Shown here in pieces: positions 17,234 through 55,521 of a DNA stretch of 64,000 bases (position 1 is its first letter; every line of letters starts with the position of its first letter). Source of the stretch: an uncultured Candidatus Saccharibacteria bacterium (lineage in GTDB: Bacteria; Patescibacteriota; CALEFQ01; G965231055); the NCBI GenBank assembly GCA_965231055.1, contig OZ246411.1:665875-729874 (forward strand), given 5' to 3'. The position numbers and the translations under genes were made by a program. Below the pieces are notes generated by a model. It worked only from the letters and a program-made list of their open reading frames with translations. It was not told the origin of the DNA and did no database searches.

Positions 17234-18454
17234 TTATTTAATAGATTTTTTAGTTGCCTCTATTACTCTTTTTACAGCTAACAAGTATCCTGCCTCTCTA
17301 AATGTATTTGAGTTATTTTTTGATGCAAAAACTTTTTCACAAGCTAAGTCTATATGCTTTTTAAGCTTAGCGTTGACATCAGACAAAGACCAATGCTCGT
17401 TTTGTTTGTTTTGCAACCATTCAAAATAGGACACTATAACTCCACCACTATTTACCAATATATCAGGAATCACTGGGATCTTTTTTTGTGATAAAACTTC
17501 GTCAGCTTCTGGGCTAACAGGACCATTGGCTATTTCCAAAACCATTTTAGCTCTAACTGCATTAACATTTGAATCTGTAATAACTCCATCAATAGCCGAA
17601 GGTGCCAAAACATCTAACTCAAGAGATAGCAATTCTTCGTTGGTAATATCCTTGGCAAATCCTTTTAGGTTTCTATTGGCTTTTTTGTATGCAATAGCTT
17701 TTTCTATGTCGATACCGTTTTCATCATAAGTTGCAGTTTTTGAATCCGAAATCGCAACTATTTTATACCCAGCTTGGCTTGCGAGTTTTGCAAACCATCC
17801 GCCAGCATTGCCTATTCCCTGAACCGCTATAGTAGAACCATTTTTTAATCCCAGTTTTTCTGCAAAAAATTGGAGTGTGTAAAGCGCACCTTGACCCGTA
17901 GCTGCATCTCTGCCCTCTGATCCACCTTCCTCCAAAGGCTTACCCGTAATTACTGCGGGAACTGATTCGCCTACCAATTTTTCGTACTCATCTCTCATCC
18001 ATTTCATAATTCTAGCATCTGTATTTACATCAGGAGCTGGAACATCCAAATCTGGGCCGATATTACGATATATACCCCTTATAAAGCCCCTAGAAAGCGA
18101 TTCTAGCTCTTTTACGCTTAATTCCGAGGGATCTACTGTGACACCACCTTTTCCACCACCCAGAGGAATCCCTGCGAGCGAGCACTTCCAAGTCATCCAC
18201 ATAGCAAGAGCTTTTACCTCGTCAGGATTTACGTTTTCGTGAAATCTGATACCTCCCTTATATGGACCAAGCGCACTTGAGTGTTGAGATCTGTAACCCT
18301 TAAAGATTTTGATATTTCCTGAATCCATTTTTACAGGAATAGAAATCTCTATAAATCTCTCGGGAGATTTCAAGATTTCAATAATCTCACCGTCCTCAGC
18401 AAAACTTGAGGAAACTTTATCTAATTGTTTTTTTGCGTTTTCGAATGCATTCAT
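17234..18454 (-). CDS. gdhA: Glutamate dehydrogenase (Glu/Leu/Phe/Val dehydrogenase family)
   Basis: KGGIRFHENVNPDEVKALAMWMTWKCSLAGIPLGGGKGG contains the catalytic Lys region. C-terminal NAD(P)-binding GIGNAGG. Confidence 0.8.
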   Translation of the reverse strand: MNAFENAKKQLDKVSSSFAEDGEIIEILKSPERFIEISIPVKMDSGNIKIFKGYRSQHSSALGPYKGGIRFHENVNPDEVKALAMWMTWKCSLAGIPLGGGKGGVTVDPSELSVKELESLSRGFIRGIYRNIGPDLDVPAPDVNTDARIMKWMRDEYEKLVGESVPAVITGKPLEEGGSEGRDAATGQGALYTLQFFAEKLGLKNGSTIAVQGIGNAGGWFAKLASQAGYKIVAISDSKTATYDENGIDIEKAIAYKKANRNLKGFAKDITNEELLSLELDVLAPSAIDGVITDSNVNAVRAKMVLEIANGPVSPEADEVLSQKKIPVIPDILVNSGGVIVSYFEWLQNKQNEHWSLSDVNAKLKKHIDLACEKVFASKNNSNTFREAGYLLAVKRVIEATKKSIK

Positions 18455-19065
18455 TAGAAAATATTAATATTTAAAAGTAATAACCCACCAAGTATTAAAA
18501 GAATTATTCCTGCGATAATATCTAGAGTCTTTGCATTTTTAATTCTACTACTTATAAATTTGGCTATTAGTATGGAGACAAGGGCACCCAAAAGAAAACC
18601 CACTCCAAATCCAAGTATCTCAGTAAGTGTTCTCGCCCTATCCCACATAACCACAGAAGCAACCACAAAATCATTTAATCCGCTAACCAAAATATAAATC
18701 AAAAATCCGATTAAAAAATTGTGTAGATATCCTTTGGAAAGTCCACCTCTCTCAACATGGCGATTTACATGAAATGGTATGCGTTCTGCGAAAGCATCCC
18801 AAAGTTCTTTGAGAGCTATAACTATAACTATGACGGCTGGAATTTTTATAGCAAAACCCGAGAGCTCATAATCTCCAAAAAGCCACGCAACTATCATAGC
18901 TAGTACCAATCCAACAATAGCACCCACAAAATTACCAAGCATCAGAAACCTTTTGCTTTTTCCCGAAGTCTTTTTGAGTGAGATAGCTACCAAAATCAAA
19001 TCATCTACCCCCGTAGCAAACCAAGCAAAAATTCCCAATAAAATTGCGCCAATCAGAGGCAACAT
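18454..19065 (-). CDS. CadD-family (cadmium-resistance-transporter-like) membrane protein
   Basis: Two internal repeats with intramembrane Asp (ATGVDDLILV and SGLNDFVVAS) parallel the TSIDYLVIL / GADNIGIFV repeats of CadD; ~200 aa, 5-6 TM. Confidence 0.45.
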   Translation of the reverse strand: MLPLIGAILLGIFAWFATGVDDLILVAISLKKTSGKSKRFLMLGNFVGAIVGLVLAMIVAWLFGDYELSGFAIKIPAVIVIVIALKELWDAFAERIPFHVNRHVERGGLSKGYLHNFLIGFLIYILVSGLNDFVVASVVMWDRARTLTEILGFGVGFLLGALVSILIAKFISSRIKNAKTLDIIAGIILLILGGLLLLNINIF

Positions 19066-19201: not shown

Positions 19202-21214
19202 TTATCTAATTGGCGTATTATCTATATCTAGTGGTTTTTTCTTGTCATCATCTTTTCTTCTCTTTCCAAGTATCCACCATAGAAATAGGATAATAATTAT
19301 GAGTATTAGCCAGAACCACCATTTCGTGAGAAGCCATTTGAAACTATTCCAGAAACTAGATGCTTCCGCTTTTAGGTTTGGATCATCTTGATCATCCGCT
19401 CCCAAAACTGTACCATCTTTTTCTTCGTCTTTATTCTCATCTTCTTCTGTGGCTTCGTCATCCGCTCCTCCACCAGTTCCAAATGCGGTGGTGCCAGCAA
19501 CAGTTCCCGTAGTAGCGGTTGTCGTAGTAGAAGAAGTTGTCCCTCTATTTATAGTATTTTCTTCTGTGTTTTCATCTGTGACACCAGCGACAGTTCCTTG
19601 ATCATCGGCATCATCATCGTTGTCTTGGTCATCATCTTGTGGAACATCTTCAGTTGCCAAGGTGAGTCCCCAAACGGATGAATCAACACTCCATCTTCCA
19701 AAACTGTCTTTGGCTTTTACTTTCCAAGAATAATTTCCCTCTGGCAAATTCAATGTAAGATTTGTATCGGTTGTATAGTGAGTAGCTCCATTTACGGTAA
19801 GTTCATATTCGGTAGCATCATCAACTGCGGTCCATGTAAAAGCTACATCGGCTGGTTCGGTTTCAAATCCATTTGCAGGAGAGATAAGTGTAGGCGCATC
19901 TGGAGCAGTAGTATCAACTGTAAATTGCCATGTTTCACTCCAAGGACTTTCATTTCCCGCAGAATCCCTTGCAATCACCTTCCATGAGTGCAAGCCTTCT
20001 GAAAAAACCCATGGATACTGTTTCTCAGTTAAGTCAGAGACAAGAAGTGAATCATCAAGATACACATCGTAATACAATGAATCAACCACAACACCCTTTA
20101 TAGAAGGAATTGTTCCAAAATCTTCATAATCCCATTCCAAAGTAATATTTGGATCATTTGTTACAAAACTATTTACGGGAGCATAAAGTACTGGGGCGTT
20201 TGGACTTATCGTATCAATAGTAAAATTCCAAGTTTCGCTCCAGGGACCTTTTACACCATCAGAATCAATAACTCTCATTTTCCACTGCCAATCGCCATTT
20301 ATTCCCATCATAAAAGCACAAATATCATTACTGGTAGTTTGCGATGGATCAGTAATCTTAATCTGAACAGATAAAGGACCCCTTAAAGAAACTTCGAATC
20401 CAGATAAAAACGAGCTATCCTGATTCGGATTCCAAGAAAAAGAGGGGCAAGAATTCCCAACTAAAGAATTATTTGCTGGAGCAACTAGTATAGGAGTTTT
20501 TAGAGTGGGTTTTTCAATAATAAAATTCCATGTTTCACTCCAAGGACCTTTCATACCTCTATGATCAACAACTCTCATCTTCCACTGCCAGTTCCCAGTA
20601 GTTAAACGAATTCCAGCAAGATTTGTTTGATAAGCATCATTGATAGAAAACTGCATATAATCAGAACCGTTACGATAAAGTTTTAGTTCGTAACCCGACA
20701 ACCCAGAAATTTCTTGATTTGAATCCCAGATAAAATTAGGATAAAGTGAATTTATCGTTGAGTTATTGGCTGGAGAAATTAGTATTACTCGAGCCAGTTC
20801 CCTAGGAGCTACGCTGTAAATGCCAGAGGAATCAATTAGACCGCTAGCACCAAATGATTTTGTATTGGAATTAGTTTTTACTATAGCTTTGTCTTTTGCA
20901 ACTACTGAAAGTTCTTTTTCAACTACTTTGACTTCCGAGGTAGCTTCGTCAGCTTTTGATACAACCTCATCTACCACGACTTCTGGTTCAGTCACCTCTT
21001 CTGGCTCTTCTTGAGCTAGATCAGATAGTGGAGCTCCTGGGACTATTTCATCTTCCAAGACAACACTCTCTACTGGAGTAACTTCTTCTGTCGCAACTTC
21101 TTCAGGAGCATTTGCGTAAATAGCTGGAGCAGAATTCATAAAGAGCATAGAAAAGATAACACAAAAAGCAAAAAGCTTTAGTGCACTTTTCTTTGAACTG
21201 GAGGGGATTTTCAT
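19202..21214 (-). CDS. Large secreted surface protein with FN3-like repeats, acidic/Thr-rich stalk and a C-terminal KWWFWLIL membrane anchor
   Basis: Signal peptide. Four repeats carry W..K....D..G..(S/G)PWSETW(N/Q)FT(I/V)(D/E), resembling fibronectin-III. DDQDNDDDADD and T-rich low complexity follow. The C-terminus is FWNSFKWLLTKWWFWLILIIIILFLWWILGKRRKDDDKKK. Confidence 0.6.
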   Translation of the reverse strand: MKIPSSSKKSALKLFAFCVIFSMLFMNSAPAIYANAPEEVATEEVTPVESVVLEDEIVPGAPLSDLAQEEPEEVTEPEVVVDEVVSKADEATSEVKVVEKELSVVAKDKAIVKTNSNTKSFGASGLIDSSGIYSVAPRELARVILISPANNSTINSLYPNFIWDSNQEISGLSGYELKLYRNGSDYMQFSINDAYQTNLAGIRLTTGNWQWKMRVVDHRGMKGPWSETWNFIIEKPTLKTPILVAPANNSLVGNSCPSFSWNPNQDSSFLSGFEVSLRGPLSVQIKITDPSQTTSNDICAFMMGINGDWQWKMRVIDSDGVKGPWSETWNFTIDTISPNAPVLYAPVNSFVTNDPNITLEWDYEDFGTIPSIKGVVVDSLYYDVYLDDSLLVSDLTEKQYPWVFSEGLHSWKVIARDSAGNESPWSETWQFTVDTTAPDAPTLISPANGFETEPADVAFTWTAVDDATEYELTVNGATHYTTDTNLTLNLPEGNYSWKVKAKDSFGRWSVDSSVWGLTLATEDVPQDDDQDNDDDADDQGTVAGVTDENTEENTINRGTTSSTTTTATTGTVAGTTAFGTGGGADDEATEEDENKDEEKDGTVLGADDQDDPNLKAEASSFWNSFKWLLTKWWFWLILIIIILFLWWILGKRRKDDDKKKPLDIDNTPIR

Positions 21215-21362: not shown

Positions 21363-24317
21363 TTATGCGACATTATCTTTGGAGTTTTTTCTATTTTTAG
21401 CAAGAACTCTCCGTAGCACTACAAATACTATCACTAAAATCAACCAGAACCACCATTTAGTGAAAAGGTTTTTCATAATTTTTCCAAATGCTCCAGCTGT
21501 TGCTCTTAGATCAAAGCCATCATTGTCAGTATTAGCATCGTCTTTTACAGACTCATCGCTATTGGATTTTGCGATTTGTTCTAATTTGCTAGAAGTAGAT
21601 TCGCCTGCAACAATTCCTTCTGACTCGGTTGAGATTGAAGAGGTTGAGCCCTGAGTTGCTGCTGAAGCAGTGCTTGAACTCGTGCTAGCAGAAGTCGTAT
21701 CTGAATCATCTGAGGAAGATGACACCATCTCTTCTTTATTTGTAATAACTACCAATTCTTCTGCGAGAGGTGCGGATGCGTGACCATTTTTATCAAATGC
21801 CATCACAGCATAATAAAAAGTTTCACCATAATCATTGCCCTTTAGAGCATCTATGTATGTATATTTTGTATTTGCTTCAACATCCATAGCGCCAACATTT
21901 GTTTCATTATCCACTGCGAAGCTCTTGCTTTTTGATTTGTAAATCTTGACACTCTTTGTTTCTTCATCATTGGCAGTTTTGAAAACTATGTCATATCTAG
22001 CATCAGATTTCTGTATTTTTTCTATGCTAACTGGTTTGAGAGGATTGGTATTGTCAAATTCAGTTGTAACAACATCAGACTCCACAACATCAGATCCAGC
22101 AATTGCTTTGACCTGAAAATTGTATACACCATCTTGCGTAAGAACATCCTTGGTAACAGTACAATTATCAGTATTTCCGCCATTAGCCAATAGGACATCT
22201 TCTCCGAATTTCACAAAACTAGAATCTGAAGGTGATTTTTTGTAGCAAGAAATAGCAACTTCTCTACCCTGAGTATCCAATGCCACAAAATTTAAATCAA
22301 ATTCACTATCTATTAGCTCTTGTGGTTCTGCCAATCTGATTACTAAGGAAGATGAAGCCGAAGCAACACCTCCAAAAGCCAAAACTCCAAAGCCTACTGC
22401 AACGACTGCGAGAAGTTTTCTTGAGTCTATTTTTTTCTTAGGCATAATGGCAAAGAGCAATGCAAATGCCATTGAAATAACTGAAATCATAACAAATATA
22501 ATTCTATAGTCAGCTCCGGTCACGGGTAATGTTTCAGGGGTAGTGGCTCCGAGAACTTTCCCCGGAATAATATTGGTAATAGTATTTTCTGAAACAGCGA
22601 CTGGTACGCTATCATCATTCTCAACTTGCGCTAATATATTGACTTCGGTACCTACGAAATTTGTATCCACATATCCAGTAGCCTGCGCCAATGCCAAGAT
22701 TTCTCCAGGTTCTTGATTGTTCATGCCCCTAGCAAAAGCTACGTCCTTATAAATACCATCAGATATATCCGATGCGACATCTCCTATATATGAAAGTGTT
22801 ATAACTTCATCTTTTGCCATAGATCCTATCGTCCAATCTCCAGGCGAAGCATAAGTTGGTTCCAAAACCACTCCCAAGTCTTTGAGACTTCCTCTTTGGT
22901 TTGAAACTGCATTGAAACTGCCGGCTCTGTATTTTATTCCTTCTGGGAGAAGATCTGTCACCACGGCATTGTCCAATGAATTTCCGATCAAGCTTATATT
23001 GATAGAATATTTGATATCGCTTCCAGCGTCCAAAAATGCACTACCTGCATCATTGGATTTTGAAATATACAATACTGGAGCATCCTGCTCTGTTTCAATT
23101 TTGGTGTTTGTAAAAACACATCTGATCACTTCTTCTGCCCCGAGACTTACAAATTCTTGATTTGGATCAGGAAGTGCCGCCATGTTCACAGAATATTCAT
23201 CTGAAATATTTGGCATTTGTTGTTCGTCTTGTTCACAAGTCACAGATGTCTCATAACCTGGATAAGCCTCTTCTTCTATCACGTATCTTCCTACCGGCAA
23301 ATCTGCAATATATGGATTGTCTATTTCAGAAAGCTGAAAATCCACAGAGGTTTGATCTAACCTAGAAACAGAAAAATCAAATTTAGTTGGATCATTCTCT
23401 ATATTTGGCACATCTTTTTCTACGATTAGAGTACCGTAAGCTTGTGCTGAGATAGTTTGTCTATTCACTACATCAACATCCACAGACTTTCCTTCCCCTA
23501 CTGTAATTTGATATCCTGGTAATCCAGAATCATCATCTCGAGAAATACTATAAAGTTCATATCCACTAGGAATATTTGTTTCAGAAATTGTATATGTACC
23601 TGCTGATCTTATATATTCATGGGAACCGCCATCTGTGAGACTTGCCATATCTCCATCCAAATCTATACTAAAACTTTGAGCTACATCATAGATATCTTCA
23701 CCATTTGGACCTACCACATCTTTATGAACCGTTATGCTTGCTGGGTTTTCAATGTAAGGATCTGGACTAACTGGTATATCTCTACCACCAACGTCATTTA
23801 ATGAGATTTTAATTCTTGCCCCTGGCCAATCAGCGGCATCGTCACCTAAAAGACTATTCCAATAAATCGTAGCTGTGGTTTTTTTAGGGATAAAGGATAG
23901 ATTGTATTCTAAGCAAGTATCGGCACCACAATCAACTTCGCCAATTAAGCTCAATATCACATTATCAGCACCATCATCTGAAAAAATCAAAGCATCTCTA
24001 TTAAAATTAAGGATACCGACGGGGTCATTGCCAAATAATTTATAGCTATGTTTAATTTCTATCGAATGAGCTTCGTCAACTGTTAAATTTTCTATTTCTA
24101 GTCTGGTTGGAATATTTTGTCCTTCCTGGTAATGTTTTATATCTCCAGGTGTCCATGTCCCATCTGTTTCCATTGCCTCAAGAGAATACTTATAAACTTT
24201 CGCATTCACACCCGCCACATTATAAAAACCTGGATTCATTAAACTCAAAAACAACGCAAATAGCGCCATTGTAAGAAACGCTACTTTTACGTTTTTTCTA
24301 ATTCTTGCTTGGCTCAT
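21363..24317 (-). CDS. Composite surface protein: LPXTG-type adhesin with Cna-B/pilin-like domains, fused in frame to a second secreted module ending in the KWWFWLIL anchor
   Basis: N-terminal signal peptide. Cna-B-like motifs (GTYTISETNIPSGYEL, VGRYVIEEEAYPGYETS). LPVTG followed by a hydrophobic stretch and KKK at aa ~606-630. Then a signal-peptide-like segment (MPKKKIDSRKLLAVVAVGFGVLAFGGVASASS), FN3/Ig-like domains, a Ser/Thr-rich region, and the C-terminus LFTKWWFWLILVIVFVVLRRVLAKNRK. Confidence 0.6.
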   Translation of the reverse strand: MSQARIRKNVKVAFLTMALFALFLSLMNPGFYNVAGVNAKVYKYSLEAMETDGTWTPGDIKHYQEGQNIPTRLEIENLTVDEAHSIEIKHSYKLFGNDPVGILNFNRDALIFSDDGADNVILSLIGEVDCGADTCLEYNLSFIPKKTTATIYWNSLLGDDAADWPGARIKISLNDVGGRDIPVSPDPYIENPASITVHKDVVGPNGEDIYDVAQSFSIDLDGDMASLTDGGSHEYIRSAGTYTISETNIPSGYELYSISRDDDSGLPGYQITVGEGKSVDVDVVNRQTISAQAYGTLIVEKDVPNIENDPTKFDFSVSRLDQTSVDFQLSEIDNPYIADLPVGRYVIEEEAYPGYETSVTCEQDEQQMPNISDEYSVNMAALPDPNQEFVSLGAEEVIRCVFTNTKIETEQDAPVLYISKSNDAGSAFLDAGSDIKYSINISLIGNSLDNAVVTDLLPEGIKYRAGSFNAVSNQRGSLKDLGVVLEPTYASPGDWTIGSMAKDEVITLSYIGDVASDISDGIYKDVAFARGMNNQEPGEILALAQATGYVDTNFVGTEVNILAQVENDDSVPVAVSENTITNIIPGKVLGATTPETLPVTGADYRIIFVMISVISMAFALLFAIMPKKKIDSRKLLAVVAVGFGVLAFGGVASASSSLVIRLAEPQELIDSEFDLNFVALDTQGREVAISCYKKSPSDSSFVKFGEDVLLANGGNTDNCTVTKDVLTQDGVYNFQVKAIAGSDVVESDVVTTEFDNTNPLKPVSIEKIQKSDARYDIVFKTANDEETKSVKIYKSKSKSFAVDNETNVGAMDVEANTKYTYIDALKGNDYGETFYYAVMAFDKNGHASAPLAEELVVITNKEEMVSSSSDDSDTTSASTSSSTASAATQGSTSSISTESEGIVAGESTSSKLEQIAKSNSDESVKDDANTDNDGFDLRATAGAFGKIMKNLFTKWWFWLILVIVFVVLRRVLAKNRKNSKDNVA
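22515..22529 (-). other. Internal LPVTG sortase-recognition motif inside ORF 21363-24317
   Basis: ACA TTA CCC GTG ACC GGA on the minus strand encodes TLPVTG, followed by the hydrophobic IIFVMISVISMAFALLFAI and then MPKKK. The in-frame ATG is at 22445-22443. Confidence 0.6.
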
Positions 24318-24509: not shown

Positions 24510-24914
24510 ATGAAAAACTTTAATGCTAAACTCTTATCGGTATTGCTTGGGATTTTTGTTCTTTTGGCAATTGCTATCCCCTGTTTTTACGCCGTAGATA
24601 TTGCTGAGATCAATGCCTTTCTGTATCCATTGGGATGCGAACCGGGTCAGATAATCCCAATTTCAATGGTCATGCTGGGAATCATATCGGGAATAATTTT
24701 TGAAAAGATACTAGGAACGCAGAAACTCTCGGGATTCGTACTTGGTTTTTTCTCAGCTAGCATGGTCGTCACCCTATGCATATCAATCAATAATAACTGC
24801 GAAAAAGCACTGAAATCCATGGTTTTCATTCTGGTGTTTGTGTTCATTTTCTACATTACCGCCCTAATAAACGGGATAATCTCAAAAGAAAGTTCGTCGG
24901 AACACAAAGAATAG
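24510..24914 (+). CDS. Small polytopic membrane protein A (4 TM), unknown function
   Basis: 134 aa, highly hydrophobic. Strong SD GGGAGG 7 nt upstream. Own terminator downstream. Confidence 0.5.
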   Translation: MKNFNAKLLSVLLGIFVLLAIAIPCFYAVDIAEINAFLYPLGCEPGQIIPISMVMLGIISGIIFEKILGTQKLSGFVLGFFSASMVVTLCISINNNCEKALKSMVFILVFVFIFYITALINGIISKESSSEHKE

Positions 24915-24946
24915 AAGCGCATCACGAGAAGATCATTACAAGAAAT

Positions 24947-24980
24947 AGCGACTGGAAAAAAACCGGTCGCTTTTTATTTT
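24947..24980 (+). terminator. Rho-independent terminator after gene A
   Basis: AGCGACTGG-AAAAAAA-CCGGTCGCT followed by TTTTTATTTT. Confidence 0.6.
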
Positions 24981-25067
24981 ATCCTAGCGATTGACAAAAA
25001 AGAGATTTCTGATAGTTTTGCAGCATATCTGCTCATTTAAAAACCTTATCCGTAAAGGAGAAATGTC

Positions 25068-25781
25068 GTGAAAAATTTTATAACTCATTTGTCTCGAGTG
25101 ATTTGTGTTTTGATTCATCTCACGCTTCTGTCACTGGTTGGATTCTTCTATTTCAATAATTTTTATGCAGAAATAGTGGGAATCCTGTTATTCAGCTCGC
25201 TGGTATCTGGAATAATTTTTGGAAAATGGAAAGTTGCCACCTCTAGGGCAGCAATTTACTGCCTTATCATTCCAAATACCCTGTTGATCATTGGATTCAT
25301 CACAGCCCGATTAATCACTATCGAAACATCATTACTGAAAGCACTACCCTGTTTGGTTTTCACAGTCGCGATCACCACAATTTTGAATGTTTTTGGAATT
25401 ATCTGCCAAGAAATCCTAGAAAGAACGGTGCTAAGAGTTCTCAAGGCGTTACTGGTGTTTTGGCAATCGGGAATGATAATGATGTTCACTGAAATCGACG
25501 CCATCTTTTCCGTAATCACGGTCAACATGGTGGCTGCAATGTGCCTGGGAATAATTCTCGGAAATGCCAGAATATCGGAGTATAAAGAATTCGGACACCA
25601 GTTGCATGTATGGTATTACCCAGCAATAGTATTGTCTTCAATGCTATTAATCACCATTTCATGTCATTTATTTGGCATAAAATACCACTTCCACTACGGA
25701 ACAAATTTGGGTGTTCTCAGTTCTTTCATTTCAGGACTAGTGGGTTTGCTAGTATACAAACTCGTATCTCAAAAAACCTGA
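25068..25781 (+). CDS. Polytopic membrane protein B (~7 TM), unknown function
   Basis: 237 aa. GTG start preceded by AAAGGAG. A TTGACA -35-like element lies at 24991. Own terminator. Confidence 0.5.
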   Translation: MKNFITHLSRVICVLIHLTLLSLVGFFYFNNFYAEIVGILLFSSLVSGIIFGKWKVATSRAAIYCLIIPNTLLIIGFITARLITIETSLLKALPCLVFTVAITTILNVFGIICQEILERTVLRVLKALLVFWQSGMIMMFTEIDAIFSVITVNMVAAMCLGIILGNARISEYKEFGHQLHVWYYPAIVLSSMLLITISCHLFGIKYHFHYGTNLGVLSSFISGLVGLLVYKLVSQKT

Positions 25782-25800
25782 TAACAATTTTATCAAAGCA

Positions 25801-25831
25801 AGGTCATGCAAATATGCGTGACCTTTTTTAA
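25801..25831 (+). terminator. Rho-independent terminator after gene B
   Basis: AGGTCA [12-nt loop] TGACCT followed by TTTTTTAATAAT. Confidence 0.5.
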
Positions 25832-25919
25832 TAATCCTAAAAACTAGACATACCAATCTAAATTTGTTAGTTTCTAACCATCTGTTCCTTTTATAACCAA
25901 AAACGAGAGGGGGTGCCAA

Positions 25920-26612
25920 GTGAAATGGACAAAAATCATCGCGCTTGAGAAGAAAATCGTATTCGGAATTCTTTTGGCAGAGATCGCGCTATTATCACTT
26001 TCTGCCTACGCATCGACATACCTGGGGTGGAACTGGTTTGCAAGATTAATGATTTCTGCAATCATCGGTTTCACTGCGGGAATGATTGTGTCAAAAAAGA
26101 CAGACCAAGCAGATGCAACTATCAAGATGTTGATTGCTACGTCAATTATTCAGTTCGCAACCGGAATAATTCTATTATCAATGAAGTTCTGGCTAACAGG
26201 ATTGATGCAAGCTATTCCGGGAACAATAGCCATGGTAGTATCTTTCGTGGTTGGCACTGATCCCCATGAGAAAAAATGGAGATTGATAAGCTTATCGATT
26301 TCAGCAACCACTCCAATACTATTGAAACTACTCCTTGCACATACATACCTCACAATTTTGACACTGGTATTTATCTTCGCCTTGCACGGTATTACATTTT
26401 TAGAAATCTGGCGCAAGCGTAAAGAACCCTCCGAAAGAATCTCGATGTGTTGGTACTTGTTTTGGGCCTTCATGTCGATCATCTCATCAACAACGGCATT
26501 ATCAGAAAGATATGGAAGTGGGATGTTAGACTTAACCACCCTAGCACTAGGAACCGTGATTATGGCTATCACAGTTCAAATTACGAGATCATTGCCTCAA
26601 CAAAAACGCTAA
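25920..26612 (+). CDS. Polytopic membrane protein C (~7 TM), unknown function
   Basis: 230 aa. GTG start with GAGAGGGGGTG SD. Contains a YLGWNW motif in TM2, shared loosely with B and E. Confidence 0.5.
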   Translation: MKWTKIIALEKKIVFGILLAEIALLSLSAYASTYLGWNWFARLMISAIIGFTAGMIVSKKTDQADATIKMLIATSIIQFATGIILLSMKFWLTGLMQAIPGTIAMVVSFVVGTDPHEKKWRLISLSISATTPILLKLLLAHTYLTILTLVFIFALHGITFLEIWRKRKEPSERISMCWYLFWAFMSIISSTTALSERYGSGMLDLTTLALGTVIMAITVQITRSLPQQKR

Positions 26613-26633
26613 GCCACAGCTCTCTCGAAAATA

Positions 26634-26663
26634 AAGGATCCAATTGCGGATCCTTTTCTTTTA
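26634..26663 (+). terminator. Rho-independent terminator after gene C
   Basis: AAGGATCC-AATTGC-GGATCCTT followed by TTCTTTTAT. Confidence 0.6.
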
Positions 26664-26802
26664 TCATAATCACTAATTTCGAAGACGAACCAATAATACT
26701 ATTCTAAACAACCTATCTCAAATATTCACAATTTTTTATCCACTGGACAGAAGTACTGATTAGTAATAGTCTGGATTCAAAGGTGATCTTTTCACACGAA
26801 AA

Positions 26803-26830
26803 CAGCGCGACAAATCGCGGTGTTTTTTTC
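26803..26830 (+). promoter_or_regulatory. Terminator-like hairpin plus U-tract inside the 5' leader of gene D (possible attenuator)
   Basis: CGCGA-CAAA-TCGCG then GTGTTTTTTTC immediately 5' of the SD AAAAGGAGGA and the ATG at 26849. Gene C already has its own terminator at 26634. Confidence 0.3.
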
Positions 26831-26848
26831 AAAAGGAGGAGTTTTGCA

Positions 26849-27568
26849 ATGAGAAGGTATCTGAGTTCGGTGAAAAAATGGGCAAAAGTATTTGCCAAAG
26901 CGGTGGTTAGCCTCTGTTTTGCAGCCACACTTCTGGGTGTTGGGTTTATTTCTACTCACAGCCTCATACCGGAAATGGCATTGCCAATCATATTGTTGGC
27001 ACTTGCTGTTGGGTTTTTGACCGGCGGAAGATGTGAAGATATTACAAACATGGACACTCGAATTCCATGCGTAACCTTCATAGTCTCTATTTGCAGCTAT
27101 GCGGCATTTCAAAAAACCACACCGATGAGCGTCGAAAACGGAATTTCAGGAATATGCATGAGCCTAGTACTGGGGATTACGACAATACTCGGCATATACT
27201 TCAACCGAAAAATCAAACCAATGTTCTGGATATCGGCTATATCAATCATGCTTTTCTGGCAAACCTCGACTTTGCTCTACGCAGTAGCCCCTCTCTGGAT
27301 ACTAGGAATTGATGGAATAATCGCAGCAACTCTCGGTATATTTTTCGGAATACAAATAAACAACTTTAAACCAAAATCTATCAGATTTCGAACCAACCGA
27401 ACCATCACTGTCATTGCTGCATGCATAGCTGTTTTTGCCTCAAACTGGATTATCGGATCAAGATCAGGAAATAGCGATGTAGTTATGTCGCTCATAACAA
27501 CTGCAAGCTCACTTTCCGCAGGGCTTCTCACCTATTTCTCCACACGAAGAAAAAACAATGCTCATTAA
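26849..27568 (+). CDS. Polytopic membrane protein D (~7 TM), unknown function
   Basis: Start set at MRRYLSS: AGGAGG lies 8 nt upstream, and the longer ORF from 26783 lacks an RBS. 240 aa. Confidence 0.5.
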   Translation: MRRYLSSVKKWAKVFAKAVVSLCFAATLLGVGFISTHSLIPEMALPIILLALAVGFLTGGRCEDITNMDTRIPCVTFIVSICSYAAFQKTTPMSVENGISGICMSLVLGITTILGIYFNRKIKPMFWISAISIMLFWQTSTLLYAVAPLWILGIDGIIAATLGIFFGIQINNFKPKSIRFRTNRTITVIAACIAVFASNWIIGSRSGNSDVVMSLITTASSLSAGLLTYFSTRRKNNAH

Positions 27569-27584
27569 CTCAACAAAAACATAC

Positions 27585-27616
27585 ATAGCCCATCTCCCGG
27601 TGGGCTATATTCTTTT
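27585..27616 (+). terminator. Rho-independent terminator after gene D
   Basis: ATAGCCCA-TCTCCCGG-TGGGCTAT followed by ATTCTTTT. Confidence 0.55.
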
Positions 27617-27697
27617 AGTGGACTTTTTTTATGTGTTTTGATAGGCTCAAATTGTTCTTTAATAATTTGTTTTCAACTATTGAAAGGGGGTTTTGCT

Positions 27698-28357
27698 ATG
27701 CAATGGAATTCTATAATATTGATCATCTCTGTGCTCGTGATTATGCTATCTTCTGGCTTCATCGCTAACTACGTAGGCTGGGTGTCCGGACTTATTTCTA
27801 TTTCACTAGCTGCGATAGTGCTAGGAACATGGGCATCACCAAGAAAAGAGGCAAAAGAAGCAGGAGAAATGGAAGCGATAGCTATTGTAATTTTTGGAAC
27901 GATATTTTTGTTCATATTCAATCTCGTAACTGCAGTCATTTTGTGGTCTTGGTCGCTAGTCCTCTTTGGAATAATAAATGCGATTCTGTTCTTAATGTTC
28001 GCGATGCAAGGACTGACCGGAAACGACGAGATTCCGAATCGGAAAAACTTCATCATCGCGCTTGGATTCATTGTCACAGGCATAGTATTCCACGGCGAAA
28101 TCGAGCCAATGCTAATTTCTCATTTTATCCTGACAGTTCTACAAGCAAGAGAAATGATCTGGGAAAAAACAGGTTGCAACAGAATGACTATAGCCATCAC
28201 GTTCGGGGCGATATTTATAGCGAGCCAAATATTCTGCCTATCAAGCAGTGATCCGTATCTTTGGGCAAAGATAAGTATCCCCGAATCAGTCTTGGCAGCT
28301 TTTATCGGAGCAGCTGCTATGATCATTTCAAGTGTGGGATCAGCAGATCTCGCATAA
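27698..28357 (+). CDS. Polytopic membrane protein E (~7 TM), unknown function
   Basis: Start set at MQWNS with AAAGGGGG SD. A TTGATA-17-TAATAAT promoter-like element lies at 27639-27667. 220 aa. Confidence 0.5.
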   Translation: MQWNSIILIISVLVIMLSSGFIANYVGWVSGLISISLAAIVLGTWASPRKEAKEAGEMEAIAIVIFGTIFLFIFNLVTAVILWSWSLVLFGIINAILFLMFAMQGLTGNDEIPNRKNFIIALGFIVTGIVFHGEIEPMLISHFILTVLQAREMIWEKTGCNRMTIAITFGAIFIASQIFCLSSSDPYLWAKISIPESVLAAFIGAAAMIISSVGSADLA

Positions 28358-29227: not shown

Positions 29228-30388
29228 TTATTTTTTTAAACCGAGATTATTGAATGGCTCTTTGGTTTCATTTTTCTTCTCATCTTCATCGTCATCTTTC
29301 TTTTTGGTAAGTAACCAAATTATGAAAGCTACGATCAAAGCTATAATCAACCAGAACCACCATTGCTTCAAAAGCCATTTAAACCAATCACCAAGTTTTT
29401 GCATGAATGATTTGGCTTCAGCTTTTACTTCCGGAGCTTTGTCATCAGAAGTTCCAAGAATAATTCCGGAATTATCTGAATCATTATCATTGGTAGTGAT
29501 TTTGTCATTACTATCTTTGTCTGCGTCTGTTTTTGACGTGTCTTTATCATCATCTCCAGCAACAGTTCCTTTGGCAAGTGTAAATGCAATCATATCACTC
29601 CATTCGCTGTAATTTCCTGCTCTGTCTGCTGATCTTACTTTCGCGAAGTAATCTCCAGCTTCAAGATTTGAAATTACTATACTGTTATTGGCAATTACTT
29701 TTGAATCAAAAGCGTAAGTTTGAAAATTGGTATTTTTTGCAACAACCACATTGTAACCATAAACTCCACTAGATAGATTGCTTGGAGCAATTTGATCATC
29801 TGAGGTGGTCCAATTCAAGTTAACGCTATCTTTGAACTTGCTTGAATTTACAGTTGTGAAAGAAGGAGAATTTGGATTTCTGGTTTCAGTCCAGAATCTA
29901 GCATAAGAACTTTTCTCAACTTGACCTTTCATGTTTTCCACTTCCATTTGAACAACCCAAGATCCATCACCAAGCTGCTTGATTTGTTTTTCTATAATCT
30001 TGTTTGATATCACGGCTGATGTTCCAGAAATAGAAACCTCAAAGTGAGCATAGTTTATTCCTGCTGGTTTGCATTCTGATCCAGCGCTCTGACCGTAATC
30101 ACAATTTCCAGCTGTGTGCCAAACATTGAATCTGGCTACTTTGAGTCCAGCTTCATCAACCACACTTGCGTTTACAGTTACAAATTTCTCACTATGCGTG
30201 AAAAGATCTGAAACACTAGCGTTTCCATTGTAATTGATCTCACCGAGATGAAAATCTTTGATTATAGTAGAAGAAGCGCTAGTTTTGGATGGAATCACGA
30301 ATCCCATAGCCAAAATAGCAATCAAAGCTACTACCAAGATTTTGCCTGTTTTAAGCCAATTTTTCATAATTTTTAACTTATTTAACAA
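29228..30388 (-). CDS. Secreted surface protein with FN3-like domain, acidic stalk and C-terminal KWWFWLII membrane anchor
   Basis: Signal peptide. FN3-like VNLNWTTSDD...AGDYFAKVRSADRAGNYSEWSDMIAFTL. D/K/T/S-rich stalk. C-terminus AEAKSFMQKLGDWFKWLLKQWWFWLIIALIVAFIIWLLTKKKDDDEDEKK, homologous to the C-termini of 19202-21214 and 21363-24317. Confidence 0.6.
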   Translation of the reverse strand: MLNKLKIMKNWLKTGKILVVALIAILAMGFVIPSKTSASSTIIKDFHLGEINYNGNASVSDLFTHSEKFVTVNASVVDEAGLKVARFNVWHTAGNCDYGQSAGSECKPAGINYAHFEVSISGTSAVISNKIIEKQIKQLGDGSWVVQMEVENMKGQVEKSSYARFWTETRNPNSPSFTTVNSSKFKDSVNLNWTTSDDQIAPSNLSSGVYGYNVVVAKNTNFQTYAFDSKVIANNSIVISNLEAGDYFAKVRSADRAGNYSEWSDMIAFTLAKGTVAGDDDKDTSKTDADKDSNDKITTNDNDSDNSGIILGTSDDKAPEVKAEAKSFMQKLGDWFKWLLKQWWFWLIIALIVAFIIWLLTKKKDDDEDEKKNETKEPFNNLGLKK

Positions 30389-53860: not shown

Positions 53861-55516
53861 TTAAACCTTATCCTGCCCCTGGTTCCTTACCACAAAAGGC
53901 AAAAAGCCGAAGATCTTGAGGGTTTTGCGCCAGAAGCCCTTTACTATATCTATCTCCTCAAGCTTCATCACAAAGGACACTAGCACAAACACAGCAAGTC
54001 CTCCAATAGATGCGAGCAGGGTCTGGACGAATACTCCCCAGAACCTATGCATATCCACAAAATTGGCGATCAAGATTTTTAGCCCTGGGAAAATAGAAAT
54101 AACTACATCTCCCCTGTTTAGACTGAGTCCCTGAACCACCAAAATCATAACGATAGATGCCAAAACCATCTTTACTACGGATGAGATGATACGTCTGTCG
54201 TCTAGGTGTCCCATGCGCAAATGCAAGACGAAAATCAGCAACAGCATATTTACAAAACTGGCGATAGAAAACGCGAGGGCTAGTCCCGCTACTCCCATTA
54301 TTTTGGCTAGATAAATATTTAGCACTATGTTTACACCGACACTTATAAGACTAATGATCACGGGAGTTTTGGTGTCCTTTAGCGCATAAAAAGCTTTGGC
54401 GACTACGGGAATTATGGACTGGGCAAAAAGACTGATGGTAAAAAATCCTAGAGCCGAGGCAGTGAGCACCGTGTCTTCCCAGTCAAAATTTCCAGTACCA
54501 AGAATGAGCCGGACTACTTGAGCGCGAAGTAATATCAAAATGATGCTAAGTGGTATTACGAAAAACATAATCTGTCTGATGGTTTTTGAGAGAGTTTTGA
54601 TGAAATCTTTGTTGTCATTTTTGGCTGCGAGACTAGAGAGCATCGGGAAAACTGCCGTCGCCATAGATACTCCTACTGCGCCATAAAGCACACTCTGAAG
54701 ATTGTTGGCAAGTGAATACACGGCAATACTTCCAAGTGCAATGGTACTTGCTACTGAGTTACTGATAAACAAATTTATCTGATACCCAGCAAGGCCTAGA
54801 ACTCTGGGCCCCATGAGTTTCAATATTTTTTTCACTCCACTATCTAGACGAAATCTAAATTCAAATTTATATCCCACTTTAATGAGCGCTGGAATTTGTA
54901 CGATAAAATGTAAAAAAGCTCCTGCAACTACTCCATAAGCTACGCCATAAATTCCAAACTTGGGAACTAGAAAAATAATTCCCAAAATAATTCCTAGATT
55001 ATAGACAACGGGAGTTAGTGAGTATGACAAAAATCTATTAAACGAATTTAGTACCCCGCTTGCTATATTACTTAGACATAAAAACACAGGGCTAAGTAGC
55101 ATGATGCGAGAAAGCGAAACTACCAATGCCTTGCCCTCGGCATCAAATCCGGGAACTACAAGATTCGTGAACAATGGCATCAGGAAATACATCACTCCAC
55201 ATACGATCAAAACCCCCACAAACAAAATATTCATCAAGGAATTGGTGATGCCAAATGCTTCTTTGCTTTTCTTTTTTTCTAGATACTCTGTAAAAACTGG
55301 AATAAATGCAGAGGAAATCGCACCTACTACTATGATATTGAAAACGATATCGGGTATTCTAAATGCGGCAAAATAAGCAGAGAGGTCTAGCCCCGCTCCA
55401 AAAGACGAAGTAAGGAGTCTATCTCTATACAAACCAAGTATCCTACTCACTATAGAAAAAACCGCTACTAGTACAGCGGCCGACATTATAGAAATTTTGC
55501 CTCTAGGTGATTTCAT
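53861..55516 (-). CDS. murJ: Lipid II flippase MurJ (MviN)
   Basis: 14-TM MOP-superfamily protein with the N-terminal VSRILGLYRDRLLTSSFGAG...AFRIPD motifs of MurJ. Confidence 0.8.
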   Translation of the reverse strand: MKSPRGKISIMSAAVLVAVFSIVSRILGLYRDRLLTSSFGAGLDLSAYFAAFRIPDIVFNIIVVGAISSAFIPVFTEYLEKKKSKEAFGITNSLMNILFVGVLIVCGVMYFLMPLFTNLVVPGFDAEGKALVVSLSRIMLLSPVFLCLSNIASGVLNSFNRFLSYSLTPVVYNLGIILGIIFLVPKFGIYGVAYGVVAGAFLHFIVQIPALIKVGYKFEFRFRLDSGVKKILKLMGPRVLGLAGYQINLFISNSVASTIALGSIAVYSLANNLQSVLYGAVGVSMATAVFPMLSSLAAKNDNKDFIKTLSKTIRQIMFFVIPLSIILILLRAQVVRLILGTGNFDWEDTVLTASALGFFTISLFAQSIIPVVAKAFYALKDTKTPVIISLISVGVNIVLNIYLAKIMGVAGLALAFSIASFVNMLLLIFVLHLRMGHLDDRRIISSVVKMVLASIVMILVVQGLSLNRGDVVISIFPGLKILIANFVDMHRFWGVFVQTLLASIGGLAVFVLVSFVMKLEEIDIVKGFWRKTLKIFGFLPFVVRNQGQDKV

Positions 55517-55521
55517 GATAA

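Follow-up and report, generated by a model that had tools for sequence, protein, structure and literature searches.

A probable natural fusion of two surface-protein genes places an LPXTG sorting signal and a second signal peptide inside one precursor of a CPR sortase cassette

A classical LPXTG sorting signal by definition closes the protein. The minus-strand open reading frame (ORF) at positions 21363-24317 of the window (the whole stretch of 64,000 nucleotides analyzed here) raises the question of how such a signal can stand in the interior of a protein. The ORF starts with ATG, encodes 984 aa and reads ...KVLGATTPETLPVTGADYRIIFVMISVISMAFALLFAIMPKKKIDSRKLLAVVAVGFGVLAFGGVASASSSLVIRL... without a stop codon; 350 residues follow the basic loop of the sorting signal in frame, which places the signal away from the extreme C-terminus. 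An earlier note on this DNA offered three readings, namely, a single pro-protein cut by sortase, two genes fused by loss of a stop codon, and internal initiation. According to our best explanation, the ORF arose naturally by in-frame fusion of the two leading genes of a conserved CPR sortase cassette. We hold this explanation with moderate confidence, a grade that applies to it as a whole, i.e. to the fusion, the inferred mechanism and the aberrant nature of the window copy taken together.

The arrangement described in the note, an internal LPVTG with hydrophobic span and KKK that runs in frame into a signal-peptide-like segment, was borne out by translation and hydropathy. The nucleotide coordinates given there are correct, the in-frame Met being M625 (ATG 22445-22443), and the residue numbers (~606-660) are about nine too high. 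A Kyte-Doolittle scan of the ORF detected exactly four hydrophobic segments, namely, the N-terminal signal peptide (aa 9-31, with the VNA|K cleavage site read by eye), TM1 (maximum 2.87), TM2 and TM3. The parts of the precursor are collected in Table 1.

Table 1. Features of ORF 21363-24317 and its downstream neighbour (nucleotide positions are those of the window)
Feature	Position (nt)	Strand	Residues	Description
N-terminal Sec signal peptide of precursor	24201..24317	-	aa 1-39	MSQARIRKNVK + hydrophobic core + VNA|K
Adhesin ectodomain	22530..24200	-	aa 40-596	
SpaA_4 prealbumin-like domain in adhesin		-	aa 309-406	Pfam SpaA_4
Conserved pre-LPXTG domain	22530-23057	-	aa 421-596	
LPVTG sortase motif	22515..22529	-	aa 597-601	after family-typical VLGATT
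TM1, sorting-signal hydrophobic span	22446..22514	-	aa 602-624	ADYRIIFVMISVISMAFALLFAI, outside to inside
Cytoplasmic basic loop MPKKKIDSRK	22416..22445	-	aa 625-634	starts at ATG 22445-22443; coding sequence holds an A7 run (AAGAAAAAAATAG)
TM2, h- and c-regions of internal signal peptide	22356..22415	-	aa 635-654	LLAVVAVGFGVLAFGGVASA; predicted signal peptidase I site ASA|SS, cut between nt 22356 and 22355
Two tandem FN3-like beta-sandwich domains	21795..22355	-	aa 655-841	
Ser/Thr/Asp-rich disordered linker	21462..21794	-	aa 842-952	GIVAGEST motif
TM3 and basic cytoplasmic tail	21366..21461	-	aa 953-984	TKWWFWLILVIVFVVL; C-terminal anchor of FN3 module; TKWWFW begins at aa 953 (nt 21461)
Downstream neighbour, surface protein with KWWFW tail	19202..21214	-	670 aa	occupies the usual position of the cassette sortase

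The Pfam match to SpaA_4 in the adhesin has an E-value of 4.5e-6 and scores 27.9 bits against a cut-off of 27.3. The domain preceding the motif hit 37 related loci in phmmer searches (E-values from 1e-16 to 1e-38); in every one of them the matching ORF is either the fused one or the adhesin upstream, and the best-matching stretch usually stops just short of LPXTG. Counterparts of LPVTG, such as LPATG, LPSTG, LPGTG and similar motifs, are present in 88 of 93 fused cluster representatives and close the upstream gene in 20 loci with separate genes. The basic loop has two roles, providing the sorting signal with its positive tail and the second signal peptide with its n-region, and in alignments it corresponds to the Met-Lys n-region of FN3-family members that are free-standing. 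TM2 is helical in an AlphaFold model of the 360-aa segment (residues 8-24), as is TM3 (residues 319-358), the latter being also a hydropathy segment. A KWWFW-type tail ends two other ORFs of the window as well (19202-21214 and 29228-30388). The first of these, the 670-aa neighbour, was considered as a paralogue of the FN3 module and rejected; BLASTP recovered the shared tail alone, with non-significant E-values. A bare LPxTG is found at chance level, with two matches in the six-frame translation of the window. The tripartite sorting signal together with the signal peptide is beyond chance, because it aligns position by position with homologues and because LPxTG lies 27-61 aa before the start of the family-profile match (which includes the signal peptide) in 88 of the 93 fused cluster representatives.

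The C-terminal half of the precursor belongs to a ~320-aa protein family of CPR (Patescibacteria) that carries no annotation, and its FN3 module produced no sequence match in Pfam, NCBIfam or PDB. Using a profile (A1) built from the window protein and two distant homologues, P0002 and P0003, we retrieved 111 proteins with E-values between 1e-41 and 1e-71. Residues 625-984 of the window protein align over their whole length with 43 members (23-33% identity); from M625 on, the end-to-end alignment extends to free-standing family proteins of 305-347 aa, their signal peptides included. The fold of this half is predicted to be a tandem of FN3 domains followed by a C-terminal helix. In the AlphaFold model of the 360-aa segment, pLDDT exceeds 90 over the FN3 domains (residues 34-217) and is below 50 over the linker (residues 231-318), and Foldseek matched tandem FN3 structures, e.g. 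RbmA (4kkp) and neogenin FN5-6, with E-values of ~1e-7. The window copy shares with the family a signal peptide, a disordered linker and a membrane helix at the C-terminus with its basic tail, and it retains the (V/A)-x-A site before the LSVR strand in the form GGVASA|SSSLVIRL. The Ala column at position -1 is 94% conserved across the family. In hmmalign columns, profile position 24 (-1) is Ala in 93 of 95 fused and 145 of 157 free-standing members, and position 22 (-3) is V, A, T or I in 92 of the 95 fused ones, so that the -3/-1 site is conserved in fused members as it is in free-standing ones. No Lys is invariant in the FN3 family: the Lys of NYSK is 95% conserved, with Arg in 4% of members. 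The Lys of PKSPTN was not supported as an obligatory pilin-like acceptor, being just 76% conserved, equally in fused and separate proteins, and missing in P0097, which belongs to a complete cassette.

To place the fusion among relatives we compared 39 related genome loci. The two halves are fused in 15 and separate in 20, the remaining four being unreadable; fusion thus occurs in 15 of 35 readable loci, and in all 35 the FN3-family gene is either fused to an LPXTG adhesin or directly follows one. In the 20 separate loci the upstream ORF ends in an LPXTG-like motif (LPSSG in L015), a TM and a basic tail, and the halves abut or overlap by 4-17 nt (8 or 17 nt where called genes overlap). The distant homologues P0002 and P0003 (~30% identity) share the layout of LPxTG, TM, basic loop, signal peptide, FN3 and TM. 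An exhaustive search gave 549 cluster representatives with strong matches (E<=1e-30); layout was scored on the best 150, and 93 of these (62%) are fused. On the domain tree the fused and separate states change four times, whereas shuffled labels, which served as the control, gave 13.2 changes on average and never fewer than 9. The fused state is inherited within clades and kept under selection. Each half is homologous to its counterpart, the fusion is genuine and widely distributed, and both signals are fully conserved. The reading of two fused genes holds as history, as the halves are separate genes in 20 related loci, and it does not hold as an accident or error. Uniform separation of the orthologues, which the earlier note had named as an argument against its interpretation, is not what the related loci display; that objection fails because the orthologues are mixed. 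Given a spread of the fusion on the scale of hundreds of relatives, a sortase signal need not stand at the end of a protein.

The two genes belong to a cassette with the order LPXTG adhesin, ~320-aa membrane-anchored tandem-FN3 protein and dedicated sortase. The sortase gene lies immediately downstream in 40 of 41 related loci, i.e. in 38 of the 39 genome loci (hmmsearch E-values from 1e-15 to 1e-93) and in those of P0002 and P0003. A second, distinct sortase is often found near the cassette. In an alignment of 14 sortases, ten of the cassette type and four of the second type, His, Cys and Arg are invariant. Among NCBIfam models the cassette sortase of related loci passes only the general sortase model TIGR01076; its best match is to class C, where it reaches 61 bits and the cut-off is 160.

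Of the readings offered in the earlier note, the polytopic pro-protein cut by sortase is the best functional one, with one addition: signal peptidase I probably also cuts, freeing a membrane hairpin. This second cut is suggested by the -1 Ala and the -3 V/A/T/I, which are equally conserved in fused and free-standing proteins. We infer both cleavages from motif conservation and envisage one precursor separated by sortase and signal peptidase I. The adhesin would be exported through Sec by the N-terminal signal peptide until TM1 of the sorting signal stops transfer, with the Lys/Arg loop kept in the cytoplasm. TM2, once the signal peptide of the second gene, would then restart export of the FN3 domains, which TM3 would hold in the membrane. 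Sortase would cut LPVT|G and pass the adhesin to an acceptor, and signal peptidase I would cut ASA|SS and release the FN3 protein, leaving behind a membrane hairpin of ~53 aa. Fused and unfused arrangements would yield the same mature products, which would explain the evolutionary persistence of both states.

Like the classical Gram-positive signal (the sortase A paradigm; TIGR01167 LPXTG_anchor), the signal in the window consists of LPxTG, ~23 hydrophobic residues and a Lys/Arg cluster, and it is borne by an adhesin of SpaA- and DUF11-like domains. Unlike the classical signal, it is followed by ~350 in-frame residues comprising the second signal peptide, two FN3 domains, the linker and a third membrane helix. 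Whereas the sortase remnant in Streptococcus gordonii is a short C-peptide (PMC11326707), here it would comprise either an entire membrane protein or a hairpin of two helices. The cassette resembles sortase-assembled pilus operons in that the gene for a SpaA-like LPXTG protein lies beside a dedicated sortase with class C as its best match. It differs from them in that this sortase is far under the class C cut-off and each cassette has a single LPXTG protein; moreover, the second component lacks LPXTG, resembles FN3 and not CnaB domains, and is anchored through a membrane helix at its C-terminus. In Streptococcus pyogenes a pilus operon also encodes SipA/LepA, a membrane accessory protein that is no pilin and may be a scaffold for transpeptidation (PMC4049620). 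In both systems the gene for a membrane-anchored non-LPXTG protein is located between the sortase substrate and the sortase, but the CPR protein is a tandem of FN3 domains whereas SipA has a signal-peptidase fold, and the sequences are unrelated. To our knowledge, SipA has not been described as fused to its pilin.

Signal peptidase cuts the structural polyproteins of hepatitis C virus and flaviviruses at internal signal sequences (references 50 and 51 of PMC4049620). The fused precursor shares with them the order of elements, in which a stop-transfer helix leads through a short loop in the cytoplasm to an internal signal with a small-x-small site and on to the next ectodomain, as well as the derivation of several membrane or surface proteins from one translation product. 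It differs in being bacterial and in that sortase would make one of the two cuts by transpeptidation, not proteolysis. We are not aware of any described bacterial example in which sortase and signal peptidase I are combined, and our search of the literature on internal LPXTG signals, on sortases of CPR, Patescibacteria and Microgenomates, and on sortase polyproteins found no description of such a fusion. The fused precursor would thus represent a natural bacterial polyprotein whose processing would join the two enzymes, and it offers a clean system for testing which acceptor a CPR sortase uses.

These observations define a previously unnamed three-part surface cassette, in which an adhesin is combined with a tandem-FN3 membrane protein and a sortase dedicated to them. 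Across hundreds of protein clusters of a major uncultured bacterial radiation, 93 of the top 150 representatives among them, the LPXTG signal is complete yet lies hundreds of residues short of the protein's end; searches for sortase substrates that demand a C-terminal position would miss such proteins or mislabel them as plain anchored proteins. The cassette is probably a main display route for very large adhesins (up to ~2,800 aa) in Microgenomates-type CPR, and it matters because CPR bacteria presumably spend their lives attached to host cells.

The window copy itself is an aberrant member of the family: the cassette sortase is gone from the locus and several residues that are near-invariant in the family have been lost from the second FN3 domain. 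No sortase gene or remnant was found in the 64-kb window or in the ~11 kb flanking its ends (~75 kb altogether), and among the best 120 of 1152 matches to the sortase profile none comes from the 843,892-bp contig. A 203-aa ORF (18454-19065) considered as a divergent sortase was rejected, as it encodes a polytopic membrane protein without a sortase motif. The FN3 module of the window is the most divergent of the 252 members: of 36 near-invariant columns, 10 deviate from the consensus here, whereas the other 251 members deviate in at most 7 (median 1). Its first Cys pair is present, and the second disulfide pair (99% conserved) and eight other near-invariant residues are replaced. This divergence, including the lost Cys pair, suggests that the window copy may be decaying or otherwise employed.

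In this genome the precursor might not be cut by sortase at all, the cassette sortase having been lost, LPVTG being a relic and the adhesin remaining tethered via TM1. The product would then be an uncut three-helix membrane protein or one cut by signal peptidase alone. We regard this as a serious but minority possibility. It accords with a locus free of sortase within ~75 kb, compared with the immediately downstream sortase of nearly all related loci, with the extreme divergence of the FN3 module, and with a tail exchanged for the genome's own KWWFW anchor. However, every element from LPVTG through the hydrophobic span and basic loop to ASA is intact, the 984-codon frame is open, and the pre-LPXTG domain is well conserved (E-value of 1e-38 to L005). 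In addition, the ~75 kb searched leave ~770 kb of the contig where a sortase could lie.

The acceptor of the adhesin could be the FN3 protein itself, although we consider this rather unlikely. Signal peptidase would first expose the conserved FN3 N-terminus (A|A-x-LSVRLEQPKSPTN), and the cassette sortase would join the Thr of LPXT either to the alpha-amine of this N-terminus or to a Lys close by. Where the precursor is fused, the two-helix hairpin would be excised and its flanks re-joined, amounting to sortase-driven protein splicing, and the product would be an adhesin on an FN3 stalk, anchored in the membrane and not in the wall. Such a reaction would explain why the two genes are always coupled 1:1 or fused and have a dedicated sortase, as well as the absence of LPXTG from the FN3 protein and its unusually conserved mature N-terminus.

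Internal initiation, with the ATG at 22445 as the main start of the FN3 protein and the read-through product minor or irrelevant, is improbable. The in-frame ATG is located exactly where free-standing family members begin, and a few fused loci (L005, L008 and L020) keep the Met of the loop. Yet this ATG is preceded by no Shine-Dalgarno-like motif (2 of 6 matches), and ribosomes would read through anyway, as the upstream ORF has no stop. In L038, L040 and L041 no in-frame ATG, GTG or TTG occurs from the middle of TM1 to the cleavage region of the signal peptide, the basic loop lacks a start codon in L009, L014, L018, L019 and L029, and the initiator-Met columns contain Met in 7 of 95 fused members versus 96 of 157 free-standing ones. 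Internal initiation thus cannot serve as a general mechanism, because fused loci without any such codon exist; an internal start codon is missing from most fused forms. Some separate translation may occur in the window copy, since an in-frame ATG opens its second signal peptide.

A sequencing or assembly artefact, i.e. a stop codon or frameshift lost between two genes, for example in the A7 run of the junction, has a negligible probability and is largely refuted. In its favour, related genomes often keep two genes that overlap by just 4-17 nt, so that one indel could fuse them, and removal of one A from AAGAAAAAAATAG yields KKK followed by TAG. Against it, the downstream frame would then have no usable start before the hydrophobic core (TAA GAA AAA ATA GAC ...), and the same in-frame layout recurs, stably within clades, in 93 cluster representatives and in a further 15 loci at species level. 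The identical 984-aa protein is encoded on four contigs from different assemblies, including the Logan assembly of run SRR10912417 and the 843,892-bp NCBI contig; together with the missing downstream start, the 15 loci and the 93 representatives, this led us to reject an error in the A7 homopolymer.

Fusion of an LPXTG adhesin with a tandem-FN3 protein across an internal sorting signal is real and widespread, and apparently undescribed. Full-text literature searches turned up neither internal LPXTG signals nor the cassette formed by the adhesin, the FN3 protein and a dedicated sortase; two CPR genome papers name a sortase only in passing. The internal signal resembles the classical LPXTG sorting signal in its way of working, but in the window it is not C-terminal and thus lies outside the positional definition of that signal. 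On re-reading the DNA of the window, the sequence around LPVTG and the second signal peptide matched that reported in the earlier note exactly; the nucleotide coordinates stood, whereas the residue numbers were about nine too high. According to a hydropathy scan, the fusion protein has no hydrophobic segments other than the N-terminal signal peptide and three spans, and its charge distribution is consistent with the out-in-out-in arrangement proposed in that note.

Layout of the fusion gene and its product in the window
Feature	Position	Strand	Basis or remark
Fusion ORF	21363-24317	-	984 codons, ATG start
LPVTG	aa 597-601, nt 22529-22515	-	translation
First hydrophobic span, 23 residues	aa 602-624	-	hydropathy scan
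Basic stretch MPKKKIDSRK	Met = ATG 22445-22443	-	translation
Second hydrophobic span, ends in ASA	aa 635-654	-	hydropathy scan
Third hydrophobic span, starts TKWWFW	aa 953, ~300 residues after second span	-	hydropathy scan

The N-terminal half has an SpaA_4 prealbumin-like domain, and the last 176 residues before LPVTG match an adhesin or a fused ORF in 37 related loci (E-values 1e-16 to 1e-38). From M625 on, the protein aligns end to end with free-standing Patescibacteria proteins of 305-347 aa, including those of Collierbacteria, Microgenomates and Saccharimonadales. Because the alignment takes in the N-terminal signal peptides of these proteins, M625 falls at their initiator Met. The family had no sequence match in Pfam, NCBIfam or PDB. 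In the structure of the C-terminal half predicted by AlphaFold2 with the family alignment, a signal-peptide helix precedes two confidently modelled β-sandwich domains (pLDDT >90), about 90 residues of disordered linker and a C-terminal membrane helix. Both domains group with tandem fibronectin type III pairs, e.g. those of RbmA and neogenin FN5-6 (Foldseek, E about 1e-7).

In two related loci that we looked up, the gene order is adhesin, FN3 protein, sortase. The adhesin carries a C-terminal sorting signal (LPXTG, membrane span, basic tail), its gene overlaps that of the FN3 protein by 8 or 17 nt, and the FN3 and sortase genes overlap by 4 nt in one locus and are 8 nt apart in the other. When GTDB was scanned by pattern, with each species represented by a single genome, 39 loci were obtained, all from CPR lineages or obviously mislabelled metagenome-assembled genomes. 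The earlier note had asked whether the two halves are separate genes in orthologues: they are in 20 loci, where the upstream ORF ends in LPxTG or LPSSG, a span and a basic tail, and the two genes overlap slightly or lie 0-2 nt apart, but separation is not uniform, since 15 loci have LPxTG, span, basic loop, signal peptide and FN3 fused in frame. Four loci could not be read because of runs of N, a contig edge or the lack of a containing ORF. A sortase ORF lies directly downstream in 38 of the 39 loci, as detected with an HMM built from cassette sortases, and also directly after the genes of two distant homologues of the fusion protein, P0002 and P0003. The His, Cys and Arg of cassette sortases are invariant; these sortases pass the general sortase model, and among class-specific models they come closest to class C, with scores far under its cut-off. 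A second, distinct sortase type is present within a few kb in L006, L013, L025, L028 and L034 (and L002/L004), scoring ~130-150 bits with a pooled sortase HMM versus ~270-300 for the cassette sortase, and L002 has a Peptidase_A4 gene just upstream of the adhesin. The public records of MAGs carrying this CPR-specific cassette at L009-L012, L019-L022, L026, L028, L032-L033, L039 and L042-L043 have titles with 'uncultured Gammaproteobacteria', 'Pseudomonadales' or 'Thermodesulfobacteriota'; this taxonomy is almost certainly erroneous or a placeholder.

A word-indexed family search returned only short proteins and was evidently biased against long ones. An exhaustive profile search over 1.84 billion cluster representatives gave 549 representatives of the FN3 family at E<=1e-30. 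In 93 of the best 150, the FN3 module forms the C terminus of a larger protein (369 to 2,789 aa); LPxTG is located 27-61 aa upstream of the profile-match start in 88 of these 93. MPxTG or FPxTG is present in four more. In a neighbour-joining tree built from 39 FN3 regions, of which 18 are from fused proteins, the distribution of fused and separate forms needs four state changes, compared with a mean of 13.2 and a minimum of 9 for shuffled labels. Midpoint rooting places fused forms at the base, and fused clades cover 25-40% sequence distance with every signal element intact. The fusion is therefore inherited and maintained rather than a series of recent accidents.

How would the fused precursor be processed? 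In a family-HMM alignment of 95 fused and 157 free-standing modules, Ala occupies position -1 at the signal-peptidase site in 93 and 145 modules, respectively, and position -3 is V/A/T/I or V/A/S/I in 92 and 146; Met is found in the initiator-Met columns in 7 and 96. In fused genes, selection still maintains the signal-peptidase site. In the simplest model, which is plausible and in which both cleavages are predicted, the adhesin would be exported by Sec, transfer would be stopped by the sorting-signal helix and export restarted by the internal signal peptide, after which signal peptidase I would cut after Ala and sortase at LPXT|G. Fused and separate arrangements would then give the same mature products, the former plus a small hairpin. 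Internal initiation, another reading in the earlier note, cannot generally account for the FN3 product: three fused loci have no in-frame ATG/GTG/TTG from the middle of the first span to the signal-peptide cleavage region, several more have none within the basic loop, and no Shine-Dalgarno-like sequence precedes the window's ATG. As a rule, the FN3 half of a fused gene must therefore be translated within the long polypeptide.

Loss of a stop codon through sequencing or assembly error, also a concern of that note, is all but ruled out: the identical 984-aa protein is found on four contigs, among them one of 843,892 bp from NCBI and one in a Logan assembly of run SRR10912417; P0002 (LPNTG) and P0003 (LPATG), which are ~30% identical to it, show the same uninterrupted order of elements; and although one A fewer in the A7 run AAGAAAAAAATAG of the junction (22416-22445) gives KKK followed by TAG, such a homopolymer error restores no two normal genes, because in the window sequence the downstream frame would lack a usable start codon. 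A one-A deletion through transcriptional slippage at this run would yield an adhesin with a classical C-terminal sorting signal (...MPKKK-stop); the slippage-type run may be a coincidence, Lys codons being AAA and the genome AT-rich.

The constant pairing of the FN3 protein with the adhesin and a dedicated sortase suggests that it is an assembly partner, such as SipA of Streptococcus pyogenes pilus operons (PMC4049620), or an acceptor of transpeptidation. The cassette is similar to sortase-pilus operons, with a second component that has no relationship to pilins. Among candidate acceptors, the PKSPTN Lys shows 76% conservation and the NYSK Lys 95% (Arg in 4% of members), so that a pilin-like Lys is not clearly supported by the alignment. 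Putative ligation of the adhesin to the FN3 N-terminus exposed by signal peptidase would fit all observations. The remnant predicted for the fusion protein is far larger than the streptococcal sortase remnant, the C-peptide (PMC11326707). Nearly all cassette adhesins have a motif G-x-V-(L/A/E/K)-G-(A/E/S/T), typically (E/Q)VLGAST, just before LPxTG (window 22530-22560; L005-L043). In the FN3 proteins, which lack LPXTG, the motif is found again 10-30 aa ahead of the C-terminal helix; it could extend the element recognised by sortase or mark a site of modification.

The window copy is an atypical, possibly decaying example. Neither a sortase ORF nor a remnant of one is present in the 64 kb of the window or in ~11 kb flanking it; the sortase position is occupied by a gene for a 670-aa surface protein, which shares with the fusion protein only a KWWFW-type tail. 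Of 36 columns with at least 90% conservation, 10 differ in its FN3 module, among them two Arg columns and those of the second Cys pair (both residues), compared with a median of 1 and a maximum of 7 in the other 251 family members. Even so, the gene keeps an open frame, with LPVTG, membrane span, basic loop and ASA all intact. The 670-aa neighbour has the G-x-V-type motif as well (GTVAGVT, GTVLGADD). A nearly identical tail, (F/W)xKWLLx(K/Q)WWFWLI followed by a membrane span and a Lys/Arg/Asp-rich end, is present in ORFs 19202-21214, 21363-24317 and 29228-30388 (all - strand), which encode secreted or surface proteins; it looks like a genome-specific C-terminal anchor module that replaces the usual FN3-family tail. 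Divergently upstream of the fusion gene is a row of five small polytopic membrane ORFs (134, 237, 230, 261 and 239 aa; 24510-28357, + strand) with no match in Pfam or NCBIfam. Clusters of glycosyltransferase, Wzy, MurJ and DUF4012 genes at both window ends (53861-57927 and 162-1433; also in L044 and L046) probably serve surface polysaccharide. GC skew is negative in each 2-kb segment from ~6 kb onward.
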